Shown: positions 1-52,136 of the stretch, piece by piece
Position numbering within the stretch: position 1 is the first letter of the stretch
Layout: the number at the start of each line of letters is the position of its first letter
Assembly: GCA_964566535.1 (NCBI GenBank)
Contig: CAZMIO010000001.1
Coordinates: 183,751-247,750 of the forward strand
Direction of reading: 5' to 3'
DNA: 64,000 bases
From: an uncultured Methanosarcinales archaeon
GTDB lineage: Archaea; Nanobdellota; Nanobdellia; Woesearchaeales; CAZOXR01
Program-made: the position numbers and the translations under genes
Notes under the pieces: generated by a model
The model's input: only the letters and a program-made list of their open reading frames with translations
What the model was told of the DNA's origin: nothing
The model's database searches: none

Positions 1-1
1 T

Positions 2-1882
2 TTTGATCCTAAGCTTAGTCAGGTTGAGATTGAGGAGATAAGCCTTGACTTTGGGTCGTATAAGCAGGCCCTTCGTACAGGAGATAATAAGATCTGGTTT
101 CATGGTGAAGTTTTTGATGAATTATCTGCTACGTTAAGTGCTCCTGATGAGATTGTTGAGCAGATTGAGAATCCTAATCTAAAGATATTGAATGTGTTGA
201 ACGTTAAGATAGAGGGTGGTGAGGGTGCTGGTACTGTTTTAGAGATGCCTTACGTACAAGATGATAAGATTGATGAGGCAAGTGTGGGAATTTATGTTAA
301 ATTGAACGAGAGCTGGGAACTGGTTGGTGGTAAAGTTGGAGGGGGAGTTGTAAAGGTGGCTGTAGAAGATATTAATCAGTACCTTAGTAGTGATGGTGAG
401 GCAGTATTTGCTACAATGGGTGCAATATGTGTTAATTGTGTTAATTCCTCATTTGAGATGGTCTATGAGCCTAATGTAAAAAGCAGAGAGGCAGTATTAT
501 TAGTTCATGGGTTTACTAGTACACCTCTAACTTATTCTGAGATGATTGATGATATCATACTGACTGAGCAGCCGTATCAGTTATGGGTTTATGGTTATCC
601 TTCAACCAGAAAGCTTGATTTGAGTATTACGGAACTTGCTGACTTTTTAGAAGCTAATTCTGCTAAGTTTGACAAGTTGACTATTGTTGCACATAGTTTG
701 GGCGGGTTAGTTGTTCAGCAAGCTCTTTATCTGAGTGAACAGAATCCTAATGAGTATAGTTATCTTGATAAGGTAAAGAAGTTGGTATTGATTGGGGTTC
801 CAAATGAAGGTGCTCCTGGAATTCAGAATCAAAAGGAGATATTTAATTATATTGCCAATTTAAGGACTAAGAATTTCTTTGATAGTGAGAATATTCTATT
901 TGATACTTTAGCTGAAGGGATTGTAACTCCTAAGATTGAAGGGATAAATTACTATGTTGTTGCCGGTGTTAAGCCCATCTCAGTTTCGCTACCATTCTTT
1001 AAAACCGATACTGGGGAAGTATTTGAGATTTATGAGAAGAATGATGGGATTGTAACAGTTTCTAGTGCTCAGAGAGTTGGTGATGAATATATTAATGATA
1101 TGTGCAATAATTATTGGGAGATAAATTTATCGCATATTGAGCAGATTCATGAGAAAGAAGGGAGAGAATTGGTTGAGAAGATATTATCTGAAGAATTGTT
1201 GAGTAGGGATGAGCAGACTTCTTTGTTAGGTAATAATCAATACTTTAAATTGAAGATTGCTGATTGTTCAGCTGAGGACCAGTATGTTGTGATGGGTAAG
1301 AAGATTCCTGCCCAAGAGGTTGAAGATCCAACTGGTTGTTCGTGCGGGAATGGTTTTTGTGGAGTTGGTGAGGATGAGTTTAGCTGTCCTTCTGATTGTG
1401 AAGTTAATATTGTAAAGAGTTCGATTCCAATATTACCTTATGTTCTTGGGGTTTTGATATTGATCTTTTCTGTTTATAGGCATGGTAGGATACAGAGGTT
1501 GAAACATATTGGAGTTAGGAAACTGTTGATTCTTATTAAAGGGAATTATGATATTTCGGTTGTTGAGGGTATTAGTTCGATTGAGCTAAAAAGGGAGCTT
1601 TCTGAGAAAGGGATATCGCATAGGTTCTTTGATGATGCCATTAAAGTTATCTATAATGATTTCTTGAAGAAGTATATTTCGCTTGAGGATGATGTTGAGA
1701 GTAGGATTAGTAAAGGTGCTTCTAAAGAGAAGGTTGTGAAGGAATTTATGAAGGACGGTTGGAGTTCAGGTATAATTGAGAAAGCTATTGATAAGGAAGT
1801 GATTCACATTAAGTTTAGGAAGAAGGTTGTTCGTGATGTTGTGGTTAAGAGTAAGGGTAAGTATTTTGGGGTGAGTTCGTGA
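2..1882 (+). CDS. Secreted/membrane-anchored alpha/beta-hydrolase (lipase/esterase-like). The reading frame is open to the window edge, so the gene is probably 5'-partial; the first ATG in the window is at 188.
   Basis: LLVHGFTSTP and GHSLGG (GxSxG nucleophile elbow) motifs; a Cys-rich stretch followed by a hydrophobic TM helix (IPILPYVLGVLILIFSVY) and then a cytoplasmic tail; the in-frame ORF has no stop back to position 2. Confidence 0.6.
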   Translation, partial: FDPKLSQVEIEEISLDFGSYKQALRTGDNKIWFHGEVFDELSATLSAPDEIVEQIENPNLKILNVLNVKIEGGEGAGTVLEMPYVQDDKIDEASVGIYVKLNESWELVGGKVGGGVVKVAVEDINQYLSSDGEAVFATMGAICVNCVNSSFEMVYEPNVKSREAVLLVHGFTSTPLTYSEMIDDIILTEQPYQLWVYGYPSTRKLDLSITELADFLEANSAKFDKLTIVAHSLGGLVVQQALYLSEQNPNEYSYLDKVKKLVLIGVPNEGAPGIQNQKEIFNYIANLRTKNFFDSENILFDTLAEGIVTPKIEGINYYVVAGVKPISVSLPFFKTDTGEVFEIYEKNDGIVTVSSAQRVGDEYINDMCNNYWEINLSHIEQIHEKEGRELVEKILSEELLSRDEQTSLLGNNQYFKLKIADCSAEDQYVVMGKKIPAQEVEDPTGCSCGNGFCGVGEDEFSCPSDCEVNIVKSSIPILPYVLGVLILIFSVYRHGRIQRLKHIGVRKLLILIKGNYDISVVEGISSIELKRELSEKGISHRFFDDAIKVIYNDFLKKYISLEDDVESRISKGASKEKVVKEFMKDGWSSGIIEKAIDKEVIHIKFRKKVVRDVVVKSKGKYFGVSS

Positions 1883-5936: not shown

Positions 5937-5962
5937 CTCAATATTTTTTCAGTATTTAATAT

Positions 5963-6074
5963 TTCTCTCCAATACGGTTAATTTGGTTTTCCAATGGTTT
6001 AAATTTTTTATTATTAAATAAAGACTGTTCTATGTTTGCAATTTCATTTGCCCAAATCTTGCAGTGAAATTGCG
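5963..6074. repeat. Interspersed intergenic element family 2, copy 1: a roughly 65-bp AT-rich core (CAATACGGTTAATTTGGTTTTCCAATGGTT.AAATTTTTTA.TATTAAATAAAGACTGT) plus a GCAATTTCA...TGAAATTGC hairpin
   Basis: Near-identical to 52137..52251; degenerate copies at 25540..25599 and 29322..29392. Confidence 0.7.
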
Positions 6075-11083: not shown

Positions 11084-11205
11084 GCGGGTGTAACTCAGCC
11101 TGGTTAGAGTGCTAGACTCATATTTTTGAGTGATGAGGCGAAAGCCGATGAAAAAACTTAAACCGGGTTATCTAGAAGTCGTGATTTCGAATATCGCCAC
11201 CCGCA
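11084..11205 (+). tRNA. Elongator tRNA-Met (anticodon CAU) with a roughly 47-nt intron at canonical position 37/38
   Basis: Acceptor GCGGGUG/CACCCGC (G1-C72, so not the initiator); D-arm ACUC-AGCCUGGUUA-GAGU; anticodon stem CUAGA/UCUAG with loop CUCAUA; T-arm GUGAU-UUCGAAU-AUCGC; the intron contains GUGAUGA...GGCGAAAGCC...CGAUGA. Confidence 0.7.
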
Positions 11206-12042
11206 CTATTTTTTCTCTAATCTTTTCTTTTTCTCAGAAGTAATTAGGTAGTTATCATTAGAAATAACACTTTTGCCTAATCTTTGTTCAATGTCTTTTC
11301 TAGTAGAACCTGCAACTTCTCCGCCATCTCTTGCATCTTCTTTTAGTTTTGGAAAAACTTGGGAATCTCTTTCTTTTGTGAACCTTGTTGTAGTTGCTTC
11401 GCCCAGCATTGTTAATACTAATTCTATATCATCCATATGATCCCTTAAATTTTGGTTTTCTAGGCATTTATAATCTTTATACTCTTTTGGTGTTAAGTCA
11501 AATGTTGCCTTTGTTATCTCTGCTGTAAGGATTGAGTATTCTTTATTGGTCTTTACTCCTCTTTTATCCCATTCGTCTGTTAATTCGTCCCTTATTGCTA
11601 TTCCCCTAATCCTCTTTTCAATCCAATTATCAGAATAACCTTTGGATTTATAGAGCTCTTTCATTCGTTTTTGAGCTAATTCTGGGTCTTCTATTTCCTG
11701 AACTCTTTCGTATCCTACTTTTGCTAACCATCTTTTGAATGGTTCTGCTTTTTTTGAGGGGATGGATTGGATTATTCGAAACATGGATTTAGTGTGGGCA
11801 CAATCTGTTAAGTATCTCTTTCCATCTGCTGAGAGTAATTTCAGTTGTCGACAAAATGTCGATAACTCGGTTTCACTAGATTCGAACTCTCTTTTTTTCA
11901 AACGATACCAATAGTCTTTTGCATCGACACTATCTGTTAATGCTTCCACAATGTCAACCACTGAGAAATACCATTGTTCATTGTAATATATTCTCCTAAT
12001 GTTCTTTCCCTGGAATACAACTAATGCCTTGTTTTGGTCCAT
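11206..12042 (-). CDS. Bro-N domain protein (phage/mobile-element-associated family), paralog 1
   Basis: N-terminal MDQNKALVVFQGKNIRRIYYNEQWYFSVVDIVEALT has the Bro-N pattern; 278 aa; paralog of 39588..40424. Confidence 0.55.
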   Translation of the reverse strand: MDQNKALVVFQGKNIRRIYYNEQWYFSVVDIVEALTDSVDAKDYWYRLKKREFESSETELSTFCRQLKLLSADGKRYLTDCAHTKSMFRIIQSIPSKKAEPFKRWLAKVGYERVQEIEDPELAQKRMKELYKSKGYSDNWIEKRIRGIAIRDELTDEWDKRGVKTNKEYSILTAEITKATFDLTPKEYKDYKCLENQNLRDHMDDIELVLTMLGEATTTRFTKERDSQVFPKLKEDARDGGEVAGSTRKDIEQRLGKSVISNDNYLITSEKKKRLEKK

Positions 12043-12082: not shown

Positions 12083-12148
12083 TTTATAAACTTTCCGAGG
12101 GTCCATGTCCAGTGGGTTGTGGTAAGAAATTATAATTTAATAGTTGAA
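12083..12148. promoter_or_regulatory. Family-1 upstream module, copy A (TATA TTTATAAA plus conserved box CTTTCCGAGGGTCCATGTCCAGTGGGTTGTGG plus AATTTAATAGTTGAA), 5' of the Bro-N gene
   Basis: Related copies at 20127..20215, 22519..22608 and 40464..40497, each directly upstream of a minus-strand gene. Confidence 0.65.
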
Positions 12149-16644: not shown

Positions 16645-18885
16645 TTGAGTAGGTATAAGTGGAAGTGGTGTTGTAATATTGTAAGGCGCACAAAAAAGAG
16701 GGTAGGGAGATCTATTATTGACTGGCGTAAAAATAGGGCTAGGTCAAGGTCAGAAAGAGAGGAGATAGAAAGACGTCTTAAAGAGTACGAATCAGATGTT
16801 AAATCTGAGACAAAGAGTTTTAAGAGATTTTCTAGTCATCAAAGAGAAAAGCGTAAATTAGTAGTGGATATAAAACGATTGTGGAATAAAAAGTGGGAAA
16901 GAGCTGACCATGTGCTTAAACATGATTTGCCACGTATAATTCACTCTCAAATTCATTTTTTAACAGGATTAAATGAAAGTTTAGAGGATTCTTCTCTTAT
17001 TGTTAGAGAGGTTTTTCAAACTCCTAATTATTCTGATAGGGAGGTTTTCAATGAAGAGATGAGTGAAGGAGTTACAGCTGAGAAAGGTGTTGTTGCTCAT
17101 GAGATGGTTGTGGGTGGAAATGACGGCATTGTCTCGATGATAAATTATCATACTGCTCAGATAGTTGAAGAAATTAGGCAATTAAAAGAATTGTTAATGA
17201 GGGAGCTTGATGAACTAGAGAGACATACGTCTTGGGAGACAGTTGCTCAAGGAGATTTGATAACGCGCATTGATGAGCAAGATAATATAGTTAGTAATGT
17301 TAGAGAAGTATTGGGGAGATTAATTATAGACTCTCATGCATTGATATCGGAGGAGGAAGGTAGGAGAGAAGAGGAGAGAAAAAGAGTTGAAGAAGAGGAA
17401 AAGATAAGGAAACGTAGACAAGAACGAGATGATAAGGAACAGGCTATGTATAATAGGAATGAACAAGGCATGTTAGAGAGGTTTAAAAGAGATGCGTCAA
17501 TTGAATATAGAAAACTGAGGATAATTCATGAGTTAGAAGATATCCATGAAAATAGGGAACTTCGTAGAATATATTTAAGATATTTATCTATTATGAGAGA
17601 GCACAACATTGCTGCGTTGAGTTATTTTAATTCATTAGATACAAGGCAGGTTTTAAGGCAAATTCCTGAGCCTAAGCCCACTACTAGGGTACTCTGGGGT
17701 TTGAAGAGAGACGTTATTGCGAACCTAAACAATCAAAATGAGTGTATAGCTGCATTAACTACTCAAATTACCAACGGAAGATATTATTTTAAACAGCATC
17801 TTGTTGAAGAGCATGGTCATGATGAAGCTGCTGCTCATAGAGATACGCACCTTTCTGAAAGGTTATATCAACTAATAGATCTGATTGGTAGGGAATTTTA
17901 TGCTTATAAGAAAAAGTTTGCTAGGTTGTTGAAACGTCCTTTAGTATTTTCTGTTCCTTGTTCTATCACAGGAAGAGAGTTGCCTTATTATGATGAGAGA
18001 AGTATGGACAATCTAATCAATGATTTGTTTGGACGAATTAGTGGAAGTCATACACCTTATGCTGATTATATCACTGAAGAAGAGATATTATGCACAAGAG
18101 ATGAGTATGAGCAGTATGATGATGCAAGGAAGAACCGTATTGAAAGAGTTAGAAGGAAAGTATTCGAATTATTTAAGCAAGAACTTGAGATAAATCCACG
18201 TGGAGCTAATATTCTTTTTCATAATCAAGATTTTGATAGTGCAGCCGAAATTGTAAAAAGAGGCTGTATTTCCTCAGGTCATGAATTAATGCGAAATGAG
18301 GGGGCTAACCTTCGAAGAATGCCAGTTGGAGTAGGATCGGCAATCTGGTTGGATTTTAATAATCCTCAAAATATGGGTTTTGGTTGGAGTAAATTCCAAA
18401 ATGGAGGAGTAGCTTTTGCTGTACCTGTATCGAAGGCATTGCACAATCAGTATATCATTAGGGTAAATAATGTTAATGGTATTGTTTTGTATTTACACAA
18501 AGAATTAGGAGGGGAACATACTGATAAAGTAGATGCATTGAATACAAAGGTTTTCATGAGAGACTCAATTGCAATGATTCCTGTTTCACTATTTAATGAA
18601 TGGGAGGCTATTTTTAAGGCAATTAGTAATAGGCCATATGTAACAATCTATATTGATACTGGATCTAGAAGCCCCTCTCATAGATTTGAGTTTGATAGTG
18701 ATCTTGTGAAAGGTGCTCCTAATCGTGTTTTGGTTCCTTTTTTACGCTCTCTTAACATTCCATTTAATCCAGTTGCTGGACATGCTGTAGGGTTTAGAGA
18801 CCAAAATACTTGGGTAGAAGGTACATCTTATGATATTAGGGGTAATTGTACTGACTATAAGGTATTTAATCCTGGTGATGAATAA
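16645..18885 (+). CDS. Large hypothetical protein: N-terminal Arg/Glu-rich coiled-coil and a C-terminal globular domain of unknown function
   Basis: 746-aa ORF 8 bp after the phosphoesterase; GC-richer composition; no recognisable catalytic motif. Confidence 0.4.
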   Translation: MSRYKWKWCCNIVRRTKKRVGRSIIDWRKNRARSRSEREEIERRLKEYESDVKSETKSFKRFSSHQREKRKLVVDIKRLWNKKWERADHVLKHDLPRIIHSQIHFLTGLNESLEDSSLIVREVFQTPNYSDREVFNEEMSEGVTAEKGVVAHEMVVGGNDGIVSMINYHTAQIVEEIRQLKELLMRELDELERHTSWETVAQGDLITRIDEQDNIVSNVREVLGRLIIDSHALISEEEGRREEERKRVEEEEKIRKRRQERDDKEQAMYNRNEQGMLERFKRDASIEYRKLRIIHELEDIHENRELRRIYLRYLSIMREHNIAALSYFNSLDTRQVLRQIPEPKPTTRVLWGLKRDVIANLNNQNECIAALTTQITNGRYYFKQHLVEEHGHDEAAAHRDTHLSERLYQLIDLIGREFYAYKKKFARLLKRPLVFSVPCSITGRELPYYDERSMDNLINDLFGRISGSHTPYADYITEEEILCTRDEYEQYDDARKNRIERVRRKVFELFKQELEINPRGANILFHNQDFDSAAEIVKRGCISSGHELMRNEGANLRRMPVGVGSAIWLDFNNPQNMGFGWSKFQNGGVAFAVPVSKALHNQYIIRVNNVNGIVLYLHKELGGEHTDKVDALNTKVFMRDSIAMIPVSLFNEWEAIFKAISNRPYVTIYIDTGSRSPSHRFEFDSDLVKGAPNRVLVPFLRSLNIPFNPVAGHAVGFRDQNTWVEGTSYDIRGNCTDYKVFNPGDE

Positions 18886-18928
18886 GTTTATTCAAACTTC
18901 ATCTTTCTATCTTTAACATCTTCTTTTG

Positions 18929-20104
18929 CTAATAGAATAACTCTTGATTCATCTTGAGTTGATTATTAACAACCGTAAATGGTCTTCTTAAAACAACTCT
19001 CAATTTATGTTTGTTTACCATTCTATTTAAGATTGTAGACATTATCCCATATCTCATTTTTAATTTGATCATTAATTCTCTTTTTGTAATAGGGGAATCA
19101 CACAATGAATATACTCTATTTTCAATACTTGTTGGATTATAGGGTGTACTGTAACACTCTATCATTTTTGATAGTTGGTTTTTCTTTATTTCAGAGTTAA
19201 AGCCAATCTTTTCTTTATAATCCTTTAATGAGTATACAATAAGGGTAAATTTTGAAGATCTTATTTTAGTCTTATATCTTATATTTAGATTATCTAAAAC
19301 CATTTGTACCCTTTTAATTCTCCTTACCCCTTTAATGCTCTGCCTTAAAATAATAGTACCATGTATATCTACATGTCCATCAGCATCAAAGAAACCTTTG
19401 GCATATTCTGATTGAACTTTCTTAGAAGCTCCACCTAAAAAATAATCTAACTTTTCTTCAATATTATTGAATAAATCATTTATTTTACTTCCTCCTATAT
19501 GTAGGATAACAAAACCTTCTTTTCTTTGGCGCTTAGAATAACTGATTATTCTTTCATTATTGAATGTCTCCTTAACTTTATCTACTAGGGCTGATTTTAT
19601 AGAATATGTATAAATTGACCATTTATTACTTGTTTTAATTAATTCATCAGTTATTTCTTTATATCTTAATAGCAAATCAATTTCTTTAGGTGAAGAACAC
19701 GCAGCAATTATTGGATTAGCTTTAGAACCATCTCCATCTCTATAACCAAAATACCAAGCTAACTTTTCATTTAGAACAAAACTAGAAGGTAATTCATAAT
19801 GTCCATTGTATCCTTGTGAATTGAAACTTATGATATTATTCCATATTTGTTCAATATTTAAATTTAGATAACTGAGGATTTTTAATAAATCTTTGAATGT
19901 AGGTTTAGTAGCTCCTCTTCGCCAGCAATTTATTGAATTCTTTTGATATCCTAACTCTTTTGCTAAATCTTTTGCAGATGTTCCTGCTTTTTGGATAGCT
20001 TCATTAAAGAGATTAGTTCTAAATTCTTTTTCCAAATTTAACCTAATATTATGAGGTAAAAAATCTTTTATGTGTATTTTTTGATAATGATTATTTGTAT
20101 TCAA
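18929..20104 (-). CDS. Free-standing double-motif LAGLIDADG homing-endonuclease-like protein with an N-terminal HTH (paralog A)
   Basis: HTH-like SAKDLAKELGYQKNSINCWRRG; LAGLIDADG motif 1 LAWYFGYRDGDGS and motif 2 AKGFFDADGHVD about 120 aa apart; acidic residues retained; possible C-terminal wHTH. Confidence 0.6.
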   Translation of the reverse strand: MNTNNHYQKIHIKDFLPHNIRLNLEKEFRTNLFNEAIQKAGTSAKDLAKELGYQKNSINCWRRGATKPTFKDLLKILSYLNLNIEQIWNNIISFNSQGYNGHYELPSSFVLNEKLAWYFGYRDGDGSKANPIIAACSSPKEIDLLLRYKEITDELIKTSNKWSIYTYSIKSALVDKVKETFNNERIISYSKRQRKEGFVILHIGGSKINDLFNNIEEKLDYFLGGASKKVQSEYAKGFFDADGHVDIHGTIILRQSIKGVRRIKRVQMVLDNLNIRYKTKIRSSKFTLIVYSLKDYKEKIGFNSEIKKNQLSKMIECYSTPYNPTSIENRVYSLCDSPITKRELMIKLKMRYGIMSTILNRMVNKHKLRVVLRRPFTVVNNQLKMNQELFY

Positions 20105-20126
20105 TTTAAATCACCGAATTATCCTC

Positions 20127-20215
20127 AGTTGAAACTATGTAAATGATTTATATACTTTCCGGGGGTCCATGTCCAGTGGGTTGTGGATGTAGAAAATCAT
20201 AATTTAATAGTTGAA
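20127..20215. promoter_or_regulatory. Family-1 upstream module, copy B, 5' of LAGLIDADG paralog A
   Basis: TTGAAACTATGTAAATGATTTATATACTTTCCGGGGGTCCATGTCCAGTGGGTTGTGGATGTAGAAAATCATAATTTAATAGTTGAAA; 90-bp near-identity to 22519..22608. Confidence 0.7.
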
Positions 20216-20290
20216 ACACCGTATGAGTGATTTAAAGTGGCAAATAAGAATGATCAATAGTTACAACGAGGATTTTTATGTTCAATGATA

Positions 20291-21229
20291 TTAATAATTT
20301 AAGAATCTACTCTCGAAGTTGTCTTTCATTAATAATACCACCCTACTTTCCTTCTTGTCATCTACAATTTTAAAGTTGGTTAATGAAGATATTTTCTTAG
20401 CAAAGTCGATTATTTCACTATGTATTGGCATATTAGTTATTTCTAGCCTTTGTTTAGAGTGTCCTACCCAGACATAAGCTTTTGCTTCAATGAATTGTGG
20501 AGATGCTTGTTTTATTAATTCAGCGTACTTTTCTGGCTTAATTAGATTTACGTCTTTTGCTAATGTTAAGCGTAAAGTGTTTCTTTTGAATTTGTTCATT
20601 AGGTTTATTGATTCTAATATTTTTTCCCATTGGTTTTTTACTAAGGGTGAGCAGATGCGTTCGTAAGTTTGCTCGTCAGGTGCTGGGAGAGTTATGTATA
20701 ACTGAGTTGGTTGTTGGTTGATTAATTGTTTTAACATTTCTGGGTTTGTTCCGTTTGTAACTAGGAAAGATGAGATTTTTCTATTTTTTAGTTCTTTGAT
20801 AAACTCTGGAAGTTTTGGATATAATGTTGGTTCTCCGCTTAGAGAGATTGCGAAGTGTAGTGGGTGTTGGGCTTCTGCATATTTTTCTCTGTCTGATTTA
20901 TCGGTTCCGCCAAAACCTTGAATGTATTTGACGTGTTCTTTTATGCAGTTGTCGATGATTTCGGATGGTTCGTCAACTGGCCCCGCCCATTTTGGTTGTG
21001 TAAACTCGATATCTCGCCAACACCAGTTACATCTATTTGAGCAGAATTGTAAAGCTGGAGTCATCTGGACGCATCTATGTGAGTTAATATTGTAGAAGGT
21101 TTTTTTGTAGCAGACGTCCTCGCACCTGATTGCTTTTTTTGTCCATAAGCATACCTTGATACTGCTATGATTACCAACTACCCTATACCCCTGTTTATAA
21201 AGATCTTTGACCTTCTCTTTTGTTAACAT
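20291..21229 (-). CDS. taw1: tRNA 4-demethylwyosine synthase Taw1/TYW1 (radical SAM)
   Basis: HRCVQMTP...CSNRCNWCWR (CX3CX2C); AISLSGEPTLYP; PTQLYITLPA; VGHS; ESRVVLL; all collinear with archaeal Taw1. Confidence 0.8.
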   Translation of the reverse strand: MLTKEKVKDLYKQGYRVVGNHSSIKVCLWTKKAIRCEDVCYKKTFYNINSHRCVQMTPALQFCSNRCNWCWRDIEFTQPKWAGPVDEPSEIIDNCIKEHVKYIQGFGGTDKSDREKYAEAQHPLHFAISLSGEPTLYPKLPEFIKELKNRKISSFLVTNGTNPEMLKQLINQQPTQLYITLPAPDEQTYERICSPLVKNQWEKILESINLMNKFKRNTLRLTLAKDVNLIKPEKYAELIKQASPQFIEAKAYVWVGHSKQRLEITNMPIHSEIIDFAKKISSLTNFKIVDDKKESRVVLLMKDNFESRFLNY

Positions 21230-22494
21230 GAACTCACCTTTAGATTTTTTAATGTATTAAATATCTCAATATTCTCTTTTTTGAAACATTTTTTATAATG
21301 CCCGAGTCTATCCAATTCTTGAGTTATATCTCTGAAAGAATCGAAATTCTCTTTAAACCATCTTAAACCTTTTTCTGTTGGTAAATGTAAAAAAGGATCA
21401 GAACCCTGACCTGTTCCATCTCTTGATAATAATTTTTGTTTGACAAATTCGGCTGCTGTTGCACTAGCATTGGATGGATGTATCCTAAAACAGTTAGCAA
21501 ATCGATTTATTGTTAAATTAGGAAATAGTAAAAAACTTGAAAAATATAATATATCATGTTCCCTAATCCTGTTTCCTTTAATCAATCCTTCTACCTCTTC
21601 TTTTTTCTTATGCGAAGGTATAAACGTTAATATATTTTTACTAAAAATATTAAAATCAGATTCCCTATTTGACCGATTATAGCCAATACTTACAAAATTT
21701 ATATAAAATTTTGGATTTTTAAAATTTAAATCTTTGATTATGTTAAGGACCAGGTTGATCTCCTTTTGATCAGTCATCCCCCATTGTAGTTTATTGCTTC
21801 TTTTATCTGCTGTTCCTTCCGCTGAAAAAAATCCTGCTAAAAATCTAAATTTAAATTCTTTTGAGCTTTTCCTTAGAATAAAATCAAAATTTTCAAATAC
21901 CTTGGTTAAGATGGTAGATAAAGGTGTATTTGCTAATCTGATTATAGCTGTCAAACCATTTGCTCCTTCTGATAAGTTGTTTGTTTTGTTGGGCTTGAAT
22001 TTAATTTTATTAAGGCCTACTTTGATTAAATTTTCTTTTAAATCTTTAATTCTTGATTCTAAAACTAAATTTCCGTATTGGATTCTTATATCACATTTAT
22101 TTATATCTTGATTTAAGGATTTCAAATAATCTACAAAATATTTTATATTTTCTATATCATTATTTCCAAATCCAATATGTTTTATTATCTTACTTCTTTT
22201 ATCAATTGATGTCAGACCATCTCCAATCCATAAACCTAAAAAAACAGGGTCTAAAGTAAATTCTTTAGGTACTATATTTGAAAACTTATTTCCTTTTCCC
22301 TGTGACTCTATTTCAATGATATCTTCATTTTCTGAGATTATATTCCAAACATTCCCTCCTTGTTTTCTTTGTCTTTGTTTTTTTTGGTTTACTAATGATC
22401 TTATTATTCTTTCACTATTTATTATTGGGTATCCATTTGTAAAATTTAAGTTATTCTTAAAATCTTCAATTTGTAATTTTTGATTAGTTTTCAT
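21223..22494 (-). CDS. Free-standing double-motif LAGLIDADG homing-endonuclease-like protein with a C-terminal extension (paralog B)
   Basis: Motif 1 VFLGLWIGDGLTS and motif 2 FLAGFFSAEGTADK about 125 aa apart; its stop overlaps the taw1 start by 7 nt (co-transcribed). Confidence 0.55.
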   Translation of the reverse strand: MKTNQKLQIEDFKNNLNFTNGYPIINSERIIRSLVNQKKQRQRKQGGNVWNIISENEDIIEIESQGKGNKFSNIVPKEFTLDPVFLGLWIGDGLTSIDKRSKIIKHIGFGNNDIENIKYFVDYLKSLNQDINKCDIRIQYGNLVLESRIKDLKENLIKVGLNKIKFKPNKTNNLSEGANGLTAIIRLANTPLSTILTKVFENFDFILRKSSKEFKFRFLAGFFSAEGTADKRSNKLQWGMTDQKEINLVLNIIKDLNFKNPKFYINFVSIGYNRSNRESDFNIFSKNILTFIPSHKKKEEVEGLIKGNRIREHDILYFSSFLLFPNLTINRFANCFRIHPSNASATAAEFVKQKLLSRDGTGQGSDPFLHLPTEKGLRWFKENFDSFRDITQELDRLGHYKKCFKKENIEIFNTLKNLKVSSC

Positions 22495-22518
22495 TTCAAA
22501 TTACCTACTTGCTTCTTG

Positions 22519-22608
22519 GTTGAGACTATGTAAATGATTTATATACTTTCCGGGGGTCCGTGTCCAGTGGGTTGTGGGATAGAAAATCATAATTTGATAG
22601 TTGAAATA
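22519..22608. promoter_or_regulatory. Family-1 upstream module, copy C, 5' of LAGLIDADG paralog B
   Basis: Same 90-bp element as copy B with 4-5 substitutions. Confidence 0.7.
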
Positions 22609-22705
22609 TTGTTTAAGGTGATTTAGATATAAAGGAAATTATTATCAAAAAAATATTTTAGTTGAATAGTTTAAATGAGGATATTTAGTTCATTATAATA
22701 GGGAA

Positions 22706-23248
22706 ATGAAAATATATATAAATGTTGATGAAAAACATGAATTTATGTCAATTAAAACTGCTGTTGAGAAGCTTGAATCACATGCTGAGTTCTTGAAATG
22801 GAAGGAAGGTCACAAAGATGCTTATTTGTCATATGCTTTTACTGTTCTTGAAGATGATAAAGGAATTGAATGGCAGATTGGTTTTTTTAATTCGGCAAGC
22901 GATAAGATTACAGCATTCACATTTAAGGGAGACGATATAGTTATTTGTGCTGATGAAGATGCTTTCAAGAAAGAAGAGAGTAAGATTCTAGAATTGGATA
23001 TGAATAAGGTTAAGATTAATGTTGATAATGCAATTAATAATGCTGAAGAGTTTCAGAAGAAAAAATATCCTAATGAAGTTTCAACAAAAGCGATAGTGAT
23101 ATTACAGAATCTTGCAAAAGAGGGGCTTGTTTGGAATATAACTTACATTACTAAGAGCTTTAATACTTTGAATTTGAAGATTAATGCTGAAGATGGGAAA
23201 GTAGTTAGTGACAAATTGTCGTCGATATTGGACTTTCAGAAGAAATAG
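22706..23248 (+). CDS. Hypothetical protein
   Basis: 180-aa ORF; no motifs recognised. Confidence 0.35.
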   Translation: MKIYINVDEKHEFMSIKTAVEKLESHAEFLKWKEGHKDAYLSYAFTVLEDDKGIEWQIGFFNSASDKITAFTFKGDDIVICADEDAFKKEESKILELDMNKVKINVDNAINNAEEFQKKKYPNEVSTKAIVILQNLAKEGLVWNITYITKSFNTLNLKINAEDGKVVSDKLSSILDFQKK

Positions 23249-23310
23249 TTAGACTGATACATTTTCTAGATATCCGTAAAATATTTTTTAAAACTGTCAG
23301 AAATTTAAAT

Positions 23311-23331
23311 TTCTGAGCATGCTCAAAAACC
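23311..23331. promoter_or_regulatory. Palindromic operator-like 20-mer TTCTGAGCATGCTCAAAAAC (core TGAGCATGCTCA) upstream of dut
   Basis: Exact reverse-complement recurrence at 47367..47386 and a degenerate copy at 55117; flanked by the TCAGAAATTTAAATTTCTGA palindrome. Confidence 0.5.
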
Positions 23332-23435
23332 GGTAAATATTTTTTAATAATTGGTTTTTGACATATAGTTTTAATCTCACATGTATTTATATAGGAGTAC
23401 GGTTTACTTCATTCTAGATTTTTTGGGGTGTTGTC

Positions 23436-23870
23436 ATGATTACTGTTAAAATACAAAAGATAAAAGATAATGCTGTTGTTCCTTCTTATGCTCACAAGGG
23501 TGATGCTGGTGTCGATTTATATTCTACTGAAGATTATGTTTTAAGTCCGGGCAATAAGATTTTAGTTTCTACTGGTATTAAGATTGCTTTGCCAATCGGT
23601 TATGAAGCTCAGGTAAGACCTAAGTCAGGACTTGCTTTGAAGCATGGCTTAAGTATTGTTAACACTCCAGGAACTATTGATGCTGGATACAGGGGAGAAG
23701 TAGGTGTGATTGTTATTAACCATGGGCAAGATGAATATAAGATTGAGAAAGGAAATAAGATTGCCCAAATGGTTTTTAACAAAATAGAAGAAGTTAATTT
23801 TGAAGAGTCCGGAGATTTAGATGATACAAGTAGAGGAGAGGGCGGGTTTGGCTCTACAACACTGAAATAA
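23436..23870 (+). CDS. dut: dUTP diphosphatase (dUTPase)
   Basis: The five dUTPase motifs are present: AGVDL, RPKSGLALK, GTIDAGYRGE, NKIAQMVF, RGEGGFGSTT. Confidence 0.85.
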   Translation: MITVKIQKIKDNAVVPSYAHKGDAGVDLYSTEDYVLSPGNKILVSTGIKIALPIGYEAQVRPKSGLALKHGLSIVNTPGTIDAGYRGEVGVIVINHGQDEYKIEKGNKIAQMVFNKIEEVNFEESGDLDDTSRGEGGFGSTTLK

Positions 23871-23907
23871 TTATTAATTCCAACACCCCCACGTATTGGA
23901 TTAACGG

Positions 23908-23934
23908 CTATGGCCATCTGGCCATAGTTTTTTC
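23908..23934 (+). terminator. Hairpin plus oligo-T terminator-like element downstream of dut
   Basis: CTATGGCCA-TC-TGGCCATAG perfect 9-bp stem followed by TTTTTT. Confidence 0.45.
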
Positions 23935-24177
23935 ACAATCAAAAAAAAGAGGCGATTTACTTTGGAAAACAAACCAATAAGTTATAACACAATAAAAAAG
24001 AACAAGACTTTAGAGGGATTTTTTTCTAAGAAAGAGAAAGAAACGGATAAGGTTGAGAAGAAAGAGTAGTTGACAAAATATTTTTATAAGAATCTATGTT
24101 CCCTTCTGTTATGCTTAATAAGGAGGGGGAAGCTACTGTAATAATTGTTATAGTATTTCTAGTTTTTATTCTGATAT

Positions 24178-24585
24178 TTGGGTTACTTGGGATTAGGCAA
24201 AGAGAGTGTAGTGGGAACAGTGAATGTGGCGATACAGAGTACTGTGGTTCTGATTTTTAGCTGTCACGAATATCCAAATATCCAGGTTACTCAAGTAGAT
24301 TATGTAAAGCCTGCTTTAATTGTAGGATTTGCTATAATAATTGGTGTTCTGATATTGAAGTTTGTTGATGTTGGTAAGATCAAGGATAGATTTGGAAGGA
24401 AGAAGGAAGAGAAAAAAACTGAAGTGAAGGAAGAGGGGAAACCCGAAGGTGAAGTTGTTAGTAATGGTTCAAATGTAACTTATTTTAACTATCCCCCATT
24501 TCCTTATCAATATTCTTTAGGCGGAAAGAGTGAGGATTCTTATAAAGATTCAGATAAGCAGTATAGTGATGATGAAGTTGTTTAA
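24178..24585 (+). CDS. Small hypothetical membrane protein; the start (TTG at 24178?) is uncertain and it may be a remnant
   Basis: One TM helix ALIVGFAIIIGVLILKF; overlaps a 54-aa Cys-rich small ORF at 24096..24260 in another frame. Confidence 0.25.
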   Translation: MGYLGLGKESVVGTVNVAIQSTVVLIFSCHEYPNIQVTQVDYVKPALIVGFAIIIGVLILKFVDVGKIKDRFGRKKEEKKTEVKEEGKPEGEVVSNGSNVTYFNYPPFPYQYSLGGKSEDSYKDSDKQYSDDEVV

Positions 24586-25241
24586 GTTAAGAGAATGTCT
24601 ATTTCTTTTTTTATTTGATTGAAAACTTCTTCTTTTGTTTTGGAAGCGTCAATTATTTTTATGTTGTCGGTTATATGTTGTTTTAGTTCTAAGAAGTTTT
24701 TTCTTAGAGTTTGCATGAATTCTAATTGTTCGAATTTCTCTTTTTGTTTTCCCCTGTTTCCTATTCGTTCTAATGCTATTTCTGGCGGGAGGTCTAGGAT
24801 GAATGCTATATCTGGTTGTTTGAAGTCTTTATTTAGTTCGATTACTTTGTTTAGTTCTATTCCTTGAGTGTGTTGAAAGGCTATGGTTGAGTAATAATAT
24901 CTATCGCAGATTACTATGTTTATATTAGTAGCGGAGTTTAGGAATGGTAGGATTGTTTCTTTGAGGTGGTCTTCACGGTCTTTTATGTATAAGTCTAAGA
25001 AGTTTTCTGCGTTTGCTTTTGGGTCTTTTTCTGTTTTTAGGAGTTCTCTGATTTCTTTTCCGTATTTGCCTGATGATGGTTCACGGGTTGATAGAATTTT
25101 GTAATCTTTGCTTTTTGAGAATAAGTAGTTATGTAATCTATTTATCATCTCTCCCTTTCCTGAACCGTCTAATCCGTCAAGAACTATGAATATGTTTTTC
25201 ATGGGTTTTGTTATTTGAGGTGTGTTTATTAATTTTTTCAT
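24582..25241 (-). CDS. tmk: Thymidylate kinase
   Basis: P-loop GLDGSGKG; DRY motif (ICDRYYYS); about 200 aa. Confidence 0.8.
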   Translation of the reverse strand: MKKLINTPQITKPMKNIFIVLDGLDGSGKGEMINRLHNYLFSKSKDYKILSTREPSSGKYGKEIRELLKTEKDPKANAENFLDLYIKDREDHLKETILPFLNSATNINIVICDRYYYSTIAFQHTQGIELNKVIELNKDFKQPDIAFILDLPPEIALERIGNRGKQKEKFEQLEFMQTLRKNFLELKQHITDNIKIIDASKTKEEVFNQIKKEIDILLT

Positions 25242-25250
25242 TAAGTTTAA

Positions 25251-25493
25251 CTATTTGTCATTCTCAACAAGAATATGATCCATGTATGAAGGATGAATTC
25301 CGTATCTTGTATCATTGACTCTTACGTAATAGGGTCCATTTCTAAAAGGGTGGCTTATAATAGAAATATCTGCTCCGCCTAATACTCCCATCTCCATTAA
25401 TCTTATTCTAGCTGGTTTGTCTAAATCTAATGTAATTCTTGAGACGGAATAGTTTTCACCAAACACTGCTTCACTTAATGGGCATTCATTCAT
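25251..25493 (-). CDS. FeoA/DtxR-C-like SH3 domain protein
   Basis: ARIRLMEMGVLGGADISII resembles the FeoA domain. Confidence 0.35.
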   Translation of the reverse strand: MNECPLSEAVFGENYSVSRITLDLDKPARIRLMEMGVLGGADISIISHPFRNGPYYVRVNDTRYGIHPSYMDHILVENDK

Positions 25494-25539
25494 TTTTTTA
25501 ATTTGTTGGAGATGATAATTGTTATTTAAATATTTTTAA

Positions 25540-25599
25540 TCATTACGGTTAATTTTGTTAATCATTGGTTAAACTTTTTTAATTATTAAATAAAAACGG
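25540..25599. repeat. Interspersed intergenic element family 2, degenerate copy 4, in the divergent promoter region before rpl7ae
   Basis: TCATTACGGTTAATTTTGTTAATCATTGGTTAAACTTTTTTAATTATTAAATAAAAACGG. Confidence 0.5.
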
Positions 25600-25723
25600 A
25601 GGGATTAATTAAACGAAAGGTTTTTAAACGTATTAAAATCACTCATACTCACCAATGATTAGTATGGTATGAACCATACATGAGGTATACAAATTCTCAT
25701 GTTTGTTACCCGGGGAGGAAAAA

Positions 25724-26074
25724 ATGACTGAAGAACCATCAAAAGAAATTATTGATAATGTATTGGAAGCTATTGAGTTAGCTAAAACTACAGGAAAATT
25801 AAGAAAGGGTACTAATGAAACTACAAAAGCACTAGAGAAAGGTACAGCAAAGCTTGTTGTAACTGCTAAAGACATTAGTCCACCAGAGATTGTAATGCAT
25901 ATTCCATTACTAGCTGAAGAAAAGGAAATACCCTGTGTACAGATTCCAAACAAAGAAGATCTTGGAGCTGCTGCTGGTATTGATGTTGGAACCGCAAGTG
26001 TTGCAATTGTCCAGGAAGGCGAAGCAAAGGACCTTATTAAAAAGGTTAAGGCTAGCTTAGGTGGAAAGAAGTAA
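25724..26074 (+). CDS. rpl7ae: Ribosomal protein L7Ae (K-turn binding; also a C/D and H/ACA sRNP component)
   Basis: KGTNETTKALEKGTAKLVVTAKDISPPEIV...IPCVQIPNKEDLGAAAG; GGAGG SD 6 nt upstream of ATG 25724. Confidence 0.9.
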   Translation: MTEEPSKEIIDNVLEAIELAKTTGKLRKGTNETTKALEKGTAKLVVTAKDISPPEIVMHIPLLAEEKEIPCVQIPNKEDLGAAAGIDVGTASVAIVQEGEAKDLIKKVKASLGGKK

Positions 26075-29306: not shown

Positions 29307-29321
29307 TTTTTTTATTCTTTT

Positions 29322-29392
29322 TTTCCATTACGGATTAGATTTTTCTCCAATGGTTAAAATTTTTAATAATTAAATAAAAACTAACAATATTT
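29322..29392. repeat. Interspersed intergenic element family 2, degenerate copy 3, between convergent aEF-2 and the 704-aa ORF
   Basis: TTCCATTACGGATTAGATTTTTCTCCAATGGTTAAAATTTTTAATAATTAAATAAAAACT. Confidence 0.5.
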
Positions 29393-31507
29393 CTATATCT
29401 GAATAGCCTCTGTTTGTGGTTGATAGAATTTATCTCCCCTGATTTCTAATTTACCTTCAGCGGCCCAGTCTTTCACTCTTTCATCATGAGTTCTAATTCC
29501 ATTTAATCTGAATGCTTGGAGTTCTTCTCCCTGATCATCATGAACTGTAACGAGACCTATATTTCTAAAATATCGCACATTTGCAGCTCTAGTTTTTGTT
29601 ATCCATTCTTGTGGGATTCCATCTACTGATCTCTTTAATTTTTTGAAATCTATACCTCTATCATCATACCATTGGTGCCTTTCACTCTTTGCTTCTTCGT
29701 CTTCTTGTTCAGGCGATTCAGCGTGAGCCCTTTTGTCTTGGTATTTTTTGATCTTATCTTTTAGATCAGCAACTTCTCCCCTTAAGATGGCTTTTGCTAA
29801 AGCTGGATCGTATTGCCTTTCCCCATTTGTAAATACATGAGTTTTATGTTCATTATATTGGTCTTTGGTTACCCATTCAATACCATATTCAAGAGAACAG
29901 ACTTCCCTTAATTCGTCATCTTGTGAAACTGCAGCCGTCATTACATCACCAACAGCTGAGTATAGATCTTGATTTCTTGTTCTGTTATCTTCTCCTGCAA
30001 ACCTTCCAGCATATTCTCTAGTCCATAAATAAGCAGAGAATAAATCTCTCTCAAGTTCATTTAAATCCATTTCATGATGTTCTGAGAACGATTTAAATCT
30101 ATATTTATCTGATAAAATATCTACTAATCTAGCATTATCACTTCTTTTTTCACTAACTCTAACATCACGTAAACTATGATAACCGTCTAATTCTTGAGGT
30201 GTTTTTATTGCTACTTCTACATCATGTTTGTCAGCTATTTTTTGGATATCGCGTGCTAGCTTTCCTGTTCTATCCTGGATAACATAACTTATTCCTCCAC
30301 CATATTCAATAAAATCTGCTAATTGTTTTCCGCTTCTGGTTCCTAGATGTTTGCCCGACTTCATATCTACTAAATCGTCTAATTCAAATGCTACTAACCT
30401 GCCTTGAGAATGATAGTCAGCTACTCTAAATGATCTAGCTGTATCAATCTTATATTGATGTTCAATATCTGGGTCTTCTAAAGCAAGTAAAATTCCACCA
30501 AAAAACTCAAAGATATATCCATATGAGAAGTGGAAAATTGGATCATTATTTTGTTCTCTTTTTGGAACTAAACTTCTGTATTGCTCTCTTAATTCTCTAA
30601 GTTCACTTTCTAATTTTAATTGTGCTTTGTCTTTTGGATTTGAGGGTTCTTTTAAAGATGTGTAGCTTGTTGTTTCTTCTGATTCATTGTTACTTTTGGA
30701 TCTTATATCTGGGAAAACTGAAGATAATAGTCCTTCTTTTCTTTGTTGGTCTATAGTCCCATCATCATTTGTTGCTTCTTCGTTTATCCAACTTAAAAAT
30801 GCTTGATAAAAGGCATTACCTCCTTCGACTTTCCTAATTGGTCCTCTTGAAAGGCCCTGCCATTCTGGATGATTATTATATTCTGCAACCCAATCATCTA
30901 TTGTTGTATAAGTTGACCAACCTTTATGTTTTGGTTTAAAAATTGTTTCAAAAAGTTCTCTTTTTCTTTCTTCATCAATAACTCCATCATCTGTGGCTTC
31001 TTCTATTACCCACCTCCTAAAAGCAAGATAGAATGCGTTTCCTCCTTCTACTTTTAATATTTCATTTGTAGATTGGCCATGCCAATTGGGATGATTGTTA
31101 TATTCTTTAACCCAGTCATCTAAAGAAGTATAAGTTGATCGGTCTTTATAAACAGGGTGGAAAATTGTCTCAATAAGTCTTCCCTTTGTAATATTATTAA
31201 CAACCCCATTTTCATCTGTAGCTTCTTTTAGTGTCCATTTATTAAATGCATCATAAAAATTCCTTCCTTTATTGTCTTTTTGAATTTGACTCGTACTTAG
31301 TTCAGCCCAATCTGTATGTAATTCACGGTAAAGAACAAAATCACCAATATCTTCAAGGAGTTTCCATCTTCTACTATTTTCAGGATGTTCATCTTCATGT
31401 TGGACAAATCCCCTAACTCTATCAATAGTGTCATGACTATAAAGATCTGGTTGACCTACAAGCATTGCATCTAATGTGTCTTCTAATCCCATCTTATTGT
31501 ATACCAA
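29393..31507 (-). CDS. Large hypothetical protein with three tandem roughly 70-aa repeats and a possible PD-(D/E)xK-like segment (GC-richer)
   Basis: Repeats of type YTSLDDWVKEYNNHPNWHGQ...KVEGGNAFY.AF..W..EEATD; central RLVAFELDDLVDMKSGK. Confidence 0.4.
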   Translation of the reverse strand: MVYNKMGLEDTLDAMLVGQPDLYSHDTIDRVRGFVQHEDEHPENSRRWKLLEDIGDFVLYRELHTDWAELSTSQIQKDNKGRNFYDAFNKWTLKEATDENGVVNNITKGRLIETIFHPVYKDRSTYTSLDDWVKEYNNHPNWHGQSTNEILKVEGGNAFYLAFRRWVIEEATDDGVIDEERKRELFETIFKPKHKGWSTYTTIDDWVAEYNNHPEWQGLSRGPIRKVEGGNAFYQAFLSWINEEATNDDGTIDQQRKEGLLSSVFPDIRSKSNNESEETTSYTSLKEPSNPKDKAQLKLESELRELREQYRSLVPKREQNNDPIFHFSYGYIFEFFGGILLALEDPDIEHQYKIDTARSFRVADYHSQGRLVAFELDDLVDMKSGKHLGTRSGKQLADFIEYGGGISYVIQDRTGKLARDIQKIADKHDVEVAIKTPQELDGYHSLRDVRVSEKRSDNARLVDILSDKYRFKSFSEHHEMDLNELERDLFSAYLWTREYAGRFAGEDNRTRNQDLYSAVGDVMTAAVSQDDELREVCSLEYGIEWVTKDQYNEHKTHVFTNGERQYDPALAKAILRGEVADLKDKIKKYQDKRAHAESPEQEDEEAKSERHQWYDDRGIDFKKLKRSVDGIPQEWITKTRAANVRYFRNIGLVTVHDDQGEELQAFRLNGIRTHDERVKDWAAEGKLEIRGDKFYQPQTEAIQI

Positions 31508-40424: not shown

Positions 40425-40463
40425 TTTAAAGAAAACTAACTTAAGAATATGGGGAGTGTAGAT

Positions 40464-40497
40464 ATTTATAAATTTTCCGGGGGTGTTTGTCCAGTGG
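40464..40497. promoter_or_regulatory. Family-1 upstream module, copy D (degenerate), 5' of Bro-N paralog 2
   Basis: TATTTATAAATTTTCCGGGGGTGTTTGTCCAGTGG; the flanking ATG context is also shared with copy A. Confidence 0.55.
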
Positions 40498-40577
40498 TAT
40501 GCTTAAAATAACCCTTCTTCTGTTACTATAACAACAAATTTTATAAATATCTAGTAATTTTCCTTTATTAGTTATTA

Positions 40578-43933: not shown

Positions 43934-43936
43934 AAA

Positions 43937-44056
43937 CGCGCCGAGGAAGATTCGAACTCCCGACCTATAGCTTAGGAGGCTATCGCTCTTTTTGGCTTCG
44001 CCAAAATCTTCTCGAACTTTGGGTTCTTCGAAGTATCCAAGCTGAGCTACCGGCGC
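43937..44056 (-). tRNA. tRNA-Arg (anticodon CCU) with a roughly 44-nt non-canonical intron in the D-loop
   Basis: Minus strand: GCGCCGG-UA-GCUC-AGCUUGGAUA-[CUUCGAAG...UUUUGGCGAAGCCAAAAA]-GAGC-G-AUAGC-CUCCUAA-GCUAU-AGGUC-GGGAG-UUCGAAU-CUUCC-UCGGCGC-G. Confidence 0.55.
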
Positions 44057-45654: not shown

Positions 45655-45680
45655 CTTGTCGCCTCCTTTAAATAAATAAA

Positions 45681-45768
45681 AGCCCCCGGGGAGAGTTGAA
45701 CTCCCGACCTGCTGATTGCTTGCTTTGTAGCTACAAGTCAGCCGCTATAGCCACTAAGCCACGGAGGC
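45681..45768 (-). tRNA. tRNA-Thr (anticodon UGU) with a roughly 15-nt intron at 37/38
   Basis: Minus strand: GCCUCCG-UG-GCUU...GCUGA-CUUGUA-[GCUACAAAGCAAGCA]-A-UCAGC-AGGUC-GGGAG-UUCAACU-CUCCC-CGGGGGC-U. Confidence 0.6.
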
Positions 45769-46880: not shown

Positions 46881-46881
46881 A

Positions 46882-47292: not shown

Positions 47293-47314
47293 TTTTACCT
47301 CTTTTTGTCAAAAA

Positions 47315-47411: not shown

Positions 47412-47422
47412 AATTCTGACAT

Positions 47423-52127: not shown

Positions 52128-52136
52128 CTTAATCTT

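Follow-up and report, generated by a model that had tools for sequence, protein, structure and literature searches.

A conserved promoter-proximal motif shared by Bro-N/DinD-like and HTH-LAGLIDADG genes: a candidate cis-regulatory site in Woesearchaeota and related DPANN archaea

A 64-kb stretch of a woesearchaeal metagenome-assembled genome (contig CAZMIO010000001.1, positions 183,751 to 247,750; hereafter the window) contains four copies of a GC-rich module that directly precedes the B recognition element (BRE) and TATA box of two Bro-N/DinD-like genes and two genes for helix-turn-helix (HTH) LAGLIDADG proteins. Comparison of this module with its counterparts in other DPANN genomes suggests that it is, more likely than not, an archaeal promoter with the binding site of a putative sequence-specific regulator, which would define a small regulon. 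The motif at its center, CCACTGGACA, is thus a candidate for a newly described upstream cis-regulatory site of archaeal promoters, and a search of the literature recovered no earlier description of it in an archaeal context.

The original prediction had reported a repeated core at four sites, and the repetition is real. The 24-mer GGGTCCATGTCCAGTGGGTTGTGG occurs exactly at 12099-12122 and 20163-20186 and with one mismatch at 22554-22577 (0 expected by chance), and a degenerate minus-strand pattern built from all four copies, CCACTGGACAnnnACCCnCGGAAA, has exactly four matches in the window, again with 0 expected (Table 1). CCACTGGACA at ≤1 mismatch is likewise confined to the four sites in the 64 kb, and a looser scan (≤2 mismatches combined with a nearby TATA-like hexamer) recovered just two extra weak matches, within chance. 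In three copies the similarity reaches about 26 nt further upstream (12123-12148, 20187-20217 and 22578-22606). The predicted placement 45-60 bp 5' of minus-strand start codons also held, with the TATA octamers beginning 46-51 nt before the starts in 4/4 copies; the coordinates of the copies stood overall, except that the third TATA begins at 22538, 1 nt later than claimed.

The proposed order of GC box, BRE and TATA in gene orientation matches the promoters of this genome, which combine an A-rich BRE with TTTATAWA. In 12/62 window genes a TTTATAWA-type octamer is found 30-34 nt before the start codon, behind an A-rich stretch (AAAAnC), which is the pattern of leaderless promoters. These leaderless promoters are strongly phased, with TTTATAWA beginning exactly 30-31 nt before the start in at least 11 window genes. 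The module has the same archaeal core promoter elements, namely TTTATAAA or TATATAAA behind GGAAAG or GGAAAA in gene orientation. Its TATA box at 46-51 nt before the start codon predicts a leader of ~18-20 nt, which in the LAGLIDADG copies contains a Shine-Dalgarno-like GGTGAT. The divergent plus-strand genes beside copies 1, 3 and 4 have TATA boxes of their own. As a separate feature of the locus of copy 4, the core promoters of the Bro-N gene and of its divergent neighbor, the gene for pyruvate phosphate dikinase, mirror each other owing to an 18-nt inverted repeat, AAAATTTATAAATATCTA (40459-40476 and 40536-40553, 94% complementary).

Beyond the window, six other DPANN genomes (29-48% GC) have CCACTGGACA at ≤1 mismatch, separated by 13-15 nt from the TATA box downstream, with diverged flanks. 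The loci L013, L016, L018, L086, L087 and L089 were fetched by protein identity alone and not by the motif. L013 encodes a 63% ortholog of the 391-aa LAGLIDADG gene of the window, just downstream of Taw1, and its promoter reads CCACTGGACA, 13 nt, TATTTAAA, with the rest of the GC box diverged. The other five are Bro-N loci of 29-47% GC, whose proteins are 68-78% identical to the window protein (Table 1); both spacer and flanks differ among the protein-retrieved loci. The core-to-TATA distance is 13-15 nt in the 13 promoter copies measured by hand, a range in which L010 is counted with CATATAAA taken as its TATA octamer (the automated scan gives 17 nt for L010). The retention of core and spacing while the flanks diverge indicates that the 10-bp core is under selection across genomes of 29-48% GC. 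A conserved element that directly precedes the BRE, keeps its spacing to the TATA box at several promoters and persists across species amid diverging flanks is what characterizes an upstream regulator site, and the core shows these features. Thus, the earlier suggestion of a dedicated factor site is supported for the core in six DPANN genomes, but not in its original extent: only the 10-bp core appears to be widely constrained, with the full 28-bp GC box and the ~135-bp palindromic module around it being, on the comparisons made here, clade-specific.

A joint scan of 176 kb of DPANN loci for the core (≤1 mismatch) with a TATA box 11-17 nt downstream recovered 9 matches against 0.05 expected, all but one directly upstream of a Bro-N or LAGLIDADG gene. 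As a negative control, 63 viral or bacterial Bro-N loci (222 kb) were put through the same scan, with 0 matches; these loci came from an alignment-based search, a single-protein search for viral Bro-N loci having returned none. A motif scan of viral contigs was similarly devoid of matches, and scans of public contigs recovered one genome contig and five metagenome contigs. One of the protein-retrieved genomes extends the motif to a further gene: in L087 (9860-9960), where PolX and Bro-N are divergent, the 110 bp between the two genes have three cores, of which CCACTGAACA and TGTCCAGTGG form an inverted pair by the PolX TATA, with one inverted core 12 nt from that TATA, and the third, GCACTGGACA, lies 13 nt before the Bro-N TATA. 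Separately, the genome of L089, in addition to its Bro-N copy, has a second box and TATA unit at 2488-2640 (CCACTTGACA, 13 nt, TTTATAAA), which is followed only by an open reading frame (ORF) of 28-44 codons or an unannotated RNA.

Several observations weigh against a regulator site with its own regulon. The conserved core is only 10 bp long, and it was the motif that led to L010, L011 and L012, so that these three do not test it independently. Among the Bro-N homologues recovered from other organisms, the nearest (L014, 81% identity) is without the core, as are a Methanoperedens homologue (L091), one LAGLIDADG family member (P0124, L084) and L090, labelled an archaeon, which instead has an inverted variant just before the ATG. 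Apart from the HTH-LAGLIDADG genes, no obvious transcription-factor gene is seen among the ~50 ORFs scanned. The size of the regulon is judged from ~74 kb of this genome, and the ~10 kb scanned beyond the end of the window hold no additional copy of the box. Finally, the long identity of the modules within the clade could reflect recombination and not selection. In favor of a shared control of the two families there is a different palindrome, TTTTAGAAATCAA(A/G)GATTTCTAAACC, in the LAGLIDADG promoter region of L013 (3277-3302), in the core-less Bro-N promoter region of L014 (9898-9923) and also in L015; the similarity among these is confined to 28 nt, and the palindrome is absent from the window. 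The sharing of a different palindrome by both gene families in another lineage suggests that their co-regulation might be a recurring one.

The anatomy of the module bears directly on the question of recombination. Two subtypes of the GC box, whose clade-level form is CCACTGGACAnnnACCCyCGGAAA, can be distinguished: subtype A, CCACAACCCACTGGACA(T/C)GGACCC(C/T)CGGAAAG, in copies 1, 2 and 3 and in L010, and subtype B, ACCACTGGACAAACACCC(C/T)CGGAAA, in copy 4 and L011 and probably in L012, so that each is common to one Bro-N gene and a LAGLIDADG gene. Among the public contigs with homologous modules, which come from related marine organisms, L008 and L010 have subtype A (84-89% identity over 62-136 nt), and L001, L009 and L011 have subtype B; in both groups the module precedes another HTH and LAGLIDADG gene. 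The contig L001 (PCBA01000034.1) was deposited as a gammaproteobacterial metagenome-assembled genome; it has 35% GC, is identical around the box to the archaeal-type L009 and L011, and is probably misbinned. The LAGLIDADG-type module spans ~135 nt, with AT-rich arms that are imperfectly palindromic around the GC box and with bounding inverted repeats TTTAAATCAC / GTGATTTAAA. These terminal repeats measure 10-13 nt: in copy 2 they are 13 nt long (20102-20114 and 20227-20239, 92% complementary) and in L010 they match perfectly over 12 nt. Copy 3 has them in imperfect form, and the Bro-N copies have none. The promoter at 12083 has a mosaic structure, in which the upstream arm is 71-79% identical to those of copies 2, 3 and L010 as against 53% to that of its paralogous copy 4, its GC box is nearly identical to the LAGLIDADG-type boxes (Table 1), and its 5' leader is of the Bro-N type, with 77% identity to copy 4. 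Moreover, the modules are 84-97% identical over 59-136 nt upstream of LAGLIDADG proteins that are only about 20-25% identical, which implies concerted evolution, exchange of 5' regions or very dense constraint.

These features are those expected of a portable promoter cassette, a mobile or recombining 5' unit of ~60-135 bp that travels with, or is copied between, selfish genes and owes its conservation to recent spread, as the original prediction had offered in the alternative. In addition to the mosaic at 12083, the bounding inverted repeats and the disparity between module and protein identities, the module is the sole blastn similarity between L010 and the window, and L013, at the orthologous position, is much less similar than the non-orthologous copy in L010. 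However, spread of this kind leaves unexplained why the 10 bp of the core alone, with their constant spacing to the TATA box, should persist in distant genomes with unrelated flanks. The homology also runs weakly on into the first codons of the downstream genes, which implies a unit of promoter plus paralogous gene in place of an independent insertion, and no target-site duplication is seen at the module boundaries. Hence, although the mosaic and the inverted repeats make the cassette partly true of the extended, clade-specific module, as a full account of the motif we regard it as rather unlikely; it is compatible with a regulator site and does not exclude it. An altogether non-functional interspersed repeat, like a miniature inverted-repeat transposable element (MITE), or a structured small RNA is hardly credible. 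Somewhat like MITEs and other promoter-carrying repeats, the LAGLIDADG-type module is a short multi-copy, imperfectly palindromic unit with terminal inverted repeats of varying completeness, and another interspersed repeat family (D3/D4) is present in the window. In contrast to them, all copies are oriented to the downstream gene at the same distance, the core is kept at homologous promoters in distant genomes, and neither a target-site duplication nor a match in viral contigs was found; in the sequence available the element is therefore not a repeat scattered irrespective of gene family or orientation. An RNA is disfavored by folding z-scores of -0.2 to +1.0 and by the lack of any Rfam match at E ≤1. 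A tRNA fragment or att site was also considered and rejected, since there is no tRNA-like Rfam match and the box is unlike the adjacent tRNA.

Two further possibilities differ from the preferred reading mainly in the protein that would occupy the site. I-TevI represses its own promoter via a mimic of its homing site, restriction systems have controller proteins, and WhiA is a LAGLIDADG scaffold with an HTH that is used in transcription control. The GC box might similarly be an operator recognized by the LAGLIDADG nucleases or their HTH domains: its 22-30 bp is the typical length of LAGLIDADG recognition sites, the proteins have an XRE-type HTH at the N terminus and a winged HTH (wHTH)-like domain at the C terminus, and the box precedes four different members of the family, with the HTH-bearing protein and the long conserved box side by side as in I-TevI autorepression and WhiA. 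Nevertheless, we consider such an operator improbable, because members only 18-26% identical have the same box, although the specificity of LAGLIDADG proteins should change as their sequences do, because P0124, which belongs to the family, is without it, and because in five genomes it stands upstream of Bro-N with no nearby LAGLIDADG gene seen. The retention of the catalytic acidic residues, by which these proteins also differ from WhiA, would mean that an intact site beside the gene needs protection, and the occurrence of the box on an unrelated gene family and on very divergent paralogues is a further difference. In Sulfolobus, Orc1-2 acts in the DNA-damage response, and an Orc1/Cdc6 paralogue acting as a transcription regulator at a site like the origin recognition box (ORB) might suit controlled genes with a DNA-metabolism flavor (DinD-like, nucleases and PolX). 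The CCACTGGA of the core equals the center of archaeal ORB and mini-ORB elements, TTCCACTGGAAAC (PMC4153887 Table 2, PMC1904270), and L016 and L086 read TTCCACTGG. However, the window copies (CCCACTGGAC / ACCACTGGAC), which read (C/A)CCACTGGAC, do not preserve the invariant TTCC and GAA, both strand and side of the G-string (a run of Cs/Gs) are wrong for an ORB, each copy stands singly, unclustered and without an origin location, and no orc1/cdc6 gene is present among the window ORFs scanned. Binding by an Orc1/Cdc6 paralogue thus appears very unlikely.

Under the regulator-site reading, the putative regulator would bind CCACTGGACA, which is often accompanied by a CCAC half-repeat 7 bp upstream. 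This position directly precedes the BRE, with the center of the TATA box about two helical turns downstream, and a protein bound there could help or hinder the loading of transcription factor B (TFB) and the TATA-binding protein (TBP). The regulon in Woesearchaeota and related DPANN would comprise the Bro-N/DinD-like (PDC-S13) genes, the HTH-LAGLIDADG nuclease genes and possibly PolX (in one genome), and in the LAGLIDADG genes the site would be embedded in the ~135-bp palindromic 5' region, exchanged or homogenized between genes. Protein binding, co-regulation and the sign of the regulation are here inferred from the arrangement of the sites. An activator is slightly favored because the site is upstream of the BRE; sites of archaeal activators typically precede the BRE directly (PMC5512572). 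Alternatively, the regulator may be a repressor that blocks TFB, given that the conserved block abuts the BRE in this clade.

This arrangement is reminiscent of the ara-box of Sulfolobus solfataricus and of the sites of EarA, Ptr2 and TFB-RF1 in Euryarchaeota, all of which are short elements directly upstream of the BRE/TATA that occur with fixed spacing at several promoters. The motif described here differs from them in sequence, gene set and lineage (DPANN), and it is a site predicted from sequence; when set beside the ara-box class, the conserved block of the window clade runs into the BRE. PMC5512572 gives ara-box-type elements as thought to act by recruiting TFB or TBP and describes the ara-box factor as unidentified. 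With the SOS box and LexA regulon, including dinD of E. coli, the motif would share the use of one operator for a DinD-like gene and DNA-metabolism genes; it differs in that the BRE/TATA machinery is archaeal, LexA is not expected and the operator is not a palindrome overlapping the promoter.

The assignment of the downstream genes to two Bro-N and two LAGLIDADG genes holds by Pfam, with the LAGLIDADG_3 score of the 391-aa protein just under the cut-off (Table 1). The two Bro-N paralogs are 55% identical and score above the PF02498 cut-off of 25.6 bits, and the PDC-S13 match spans residues 1-275. The protein has >8000 homologues in DPANN, other archaea and bacteria, of which the best 120 are 68-81% identical; JGI names several of the 71-74% homologues 'DNA-damage-inducible protein D', and there is also a match to a PHROG without functional label. 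Its C-terminal half has weak similarity (E 1e-4) to a sequence that we take to be E. coli DinD. In the predicted structure only the N-terminal domain is confident (mean pLDDT 58.7), and a Foldseek search of the PDB with this model recovered nothing significant (best E 0.07). PDC-S13 being a candidate defense family, the window Bro-N proteins are candidates for a role in defense. The earlier description of both families as selfish-looking hence needs qualification, for Bro-N is not obviously selfish in view of its numerous homologues, housekeeping neighbors and PDC-S13 match. Autoregulation by Bro-N was also considered and judged unlikely because the promoter of its 81%-identical homologue in L014 is without the core.

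Members of the LAGLIDADG family begin with an XRE-type HTH, which is followed by two LAGLIDADG motifs, and end in a wHTH-like domain. The family appears to be small and fast-evolving, with 119 cluster representatives at E ≤1e-3 and 21 at E ≤1e-10; a homologue search with the 423-aa protein returned only itself. The motifs of the 391-aa protein (FGYRDGDGS and GFFDADGHV) keep both acidic residues, and in an alignment of 16 members D125 never varies and the second site is always occupied by D or E. Given this retention in both motifs, the proteins look like active free-standing nucleases and not WhiA-like degenerate scaffolds. The window genes are indeed free-standing ORFs, outside any intron or intein. 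The predicted structure of the 391-aa protein is of low confidence (pLDDT 47.7), and sequence searches of the PDB recovered weak XRE-HTH matches only. HTH-LAGLIDADG genes adjoin Taw1/TYW1 in three genomes, in three arrangements (Table 1); in the window the 423-aa gene overlaps the start of Taw1 (20291-21229) by 7 nt, and this gene is absent from L013. Such recurrent adjacency suggests that they might be free-standing homing endonucleases targeting the taw1 neighborhood.

Table 1. Coordinates of the promoter modules and associated genes in the window and at loci of other genomes (prefix L)
Feature	Sequence	Coordinates	Strand	Remarks
Degenerate pattern, copies 1-4	CCACTGGACAnnnACCCnCGGAAA	12092-12115, 20156-20179, 22547-22570, 40474-40497	minus	
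TATA octamers, copies 1-4		12083-12090, 20147-20154, 22538-22545, 40465-40472		start codons 12042, 20104, 22494, 40424 respectively
Core box, copy 1	CCACTGGACA	12106..12115	minus	exact match; 15 nt to TATA TTTATAAA; upstream of Bro-N gene 11206-12042
GC box with BRE-like GGAAAG, copy 1	CCACAACCCACTGGACATGGACCCTCGGAAAG	12091..12122	minus	clade-specific; 94-97% identity to LAGLIDADG-type boxes
TATA box, copy 1	TTTATAAA	12083..12090	minus	fits window TATA consensus; begins 48 nt before ATG at 12042
AT-rich upstream arm, copy 1	TTCAACTATTAAATTATAATTTCTTA	12123..12148	minus	common to copies 2, 3 and L010
Core box, copy 2		20170..20179	minus	upstream of HTH-LAGLIDADG gene 18929-20104
Full LAGLIDADG-type module, copy 2		20102..20239	minus	87% identity over 119 nt to L010; left inverted repeat, AT arm, GC box 20155-20186, TATA 20147-20154, GGTGAT leader, right inverted repeat abutting TTG start
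Core box, copy 3		22561..22570	minus	upstream of LAGLIDADG gene 21223-22494
Full LAGLIDADG-type module, copy 3		22490..22625	minus	84% identity over 136 nt to L010 2944-3076; 97% over 59 nt to copy 2
Parts of copy 3		TATA 22538-22545, GC box 22546-22577, AT arm 22578-22606	minus	
Core box, copy 4		40488..40497	minus	subtype B; upstream of Bro-N gene 39588-40424
Subtype-B box, BRE and TATA, copy 4	CCACTGGACAAACACCCCCGGAAAATTTATAAA	40465..40497	minus	89% identity over 36 nt to LAGLIDADG-gene box of L011 and L001
Bro-N promoter, L016	TTCCACTGGACACTGGACA, 13 nt, TTTATAAG			
Bro-N promoter, L086	TTCCACTGGTCACTGGACA, 14 nt, TTATATAC			
Bro-N promoter, L018	TTCCACTGTCCACTGGACA, 13 nt, TTTATATT			
Bro-N promoter, L087	GCACTGGACA, 13 nt, TATATAAA			
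Bro-N promoter, L089	CCACTTGACA, 15 nt, TTTATAAA			
Bro-N/DinD-like gene 1, 278 aa		11206..12042	minus	PF02498 40.4 bits; PADLOC PDC-S13 E 1e-115
Bro-N/DinD-like gene 2, 278 aa		39588..40424	minus	PF02498 46.7 bits; PADLOC PDC-S13 E 8e-107
HTH_3, double-LAGLIDADG, C-terminal wHTH-like gene, 391 aa		18929..20104	minus	LAGLIDADG_3 22.0 bits vs 22.5 cut-off
Divergent same-family LAGLIDADG gene, 423 aa		21223..22494	minus	LAGLIDADG_3 31.4 bits
HTH-LAGLIDADG genes on both sides of Taw1		window 18929-22494		
HTH-LAGLIDADG gene downstream of Taw1		L013 2202-4538		
HTH-LAGLIDADG gene convergent and overlapping with Taw1		L083-L085 3001-5056		

The remainder of the window is an ordinary woesearchaeal chromosome that encodes glutamyl-tRNA synthetase, histone, elongation factor 2, pyruvate phosphate dikinase, Taw1, dUTPase, kinases, pseudouridine synthases and OapB/OapC. 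The part from 18000 to 26000, with the LAGLIDADG genes and Taw1, has a GC content of 0.30-0.33 as against ~0.36 and a weaker GC skew than elsewhere in the window. A second interspersed repeat of ~70 nt, CTTTATTTAATAATAAAAAATTTTAACCATTGGAAAACCAAATTAACCGTATTGGAGA on the minus strand, occurs at 5955-6046, 25526-25581, 29311-29402 and 52130-52221; its copies are 67-90% identical and intergenic, one of them ends 14 nt before the start codon of an argininosuccinate-lyase-like gene, and its CCATTGGAAAAC is ORB-like. A plus-strand tRNA gene with the anticodon CAT (11084-11205; Rfam 50.9 bits, not found by ARAGORN) abuts the Bro-N stop codon directly and has a ~50-nt intron with a GTGATGA box-C-like motif. 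A 33-nt stretch resembling a tRNA 3' half (43934-43966) has 79% identity to 45678-45710, the 3' end of the tRNA at 45681-45768; neither tool recognized it as a tRNA, and it may represent a tRNA that is split, interrupted by an intron or decayed. Genes for OapC, OapB and a small GTPase stand together at 46497-48058; no orc1/cdc6 gene was seen among the ORFs scanned, and the cumulative GC skew has no turning point within the window.

To our knowledge almost nothing is known of gene regulation in DPANN, nearly all of which are uncultivated. If the regulator-site reading is correct, the motif would define the first regulon and operator in an uncultivated DPANN lineage, and being a short operator of defined position it can be scanned for across woesearchaeal genomes and might serve as bait for the regulator. 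It would further link the widespread, uncharacterized Bro-N/DinD-like PDC-S13 protein with nucleases and a repair polymerase, which provides a hint at the role of this protein. A more tentative extension, which seems possible though doubtful, is that of a lineage-specific DPANN regulon, inducible by DNA damage or infection, that unites the Bro-N/DinD-like gene, PolX and nucleases, with the nuclease genes having captured, and continuing to exchange, an inducible promoter of the host; the theme of DNA damage or defense is here suggested solely by the identities of the genes. In either case homing-endonuclease-like genes would share, and apparently swap, a regulated promoter of host type, which bears on how selfish genes may be tamed and timed.

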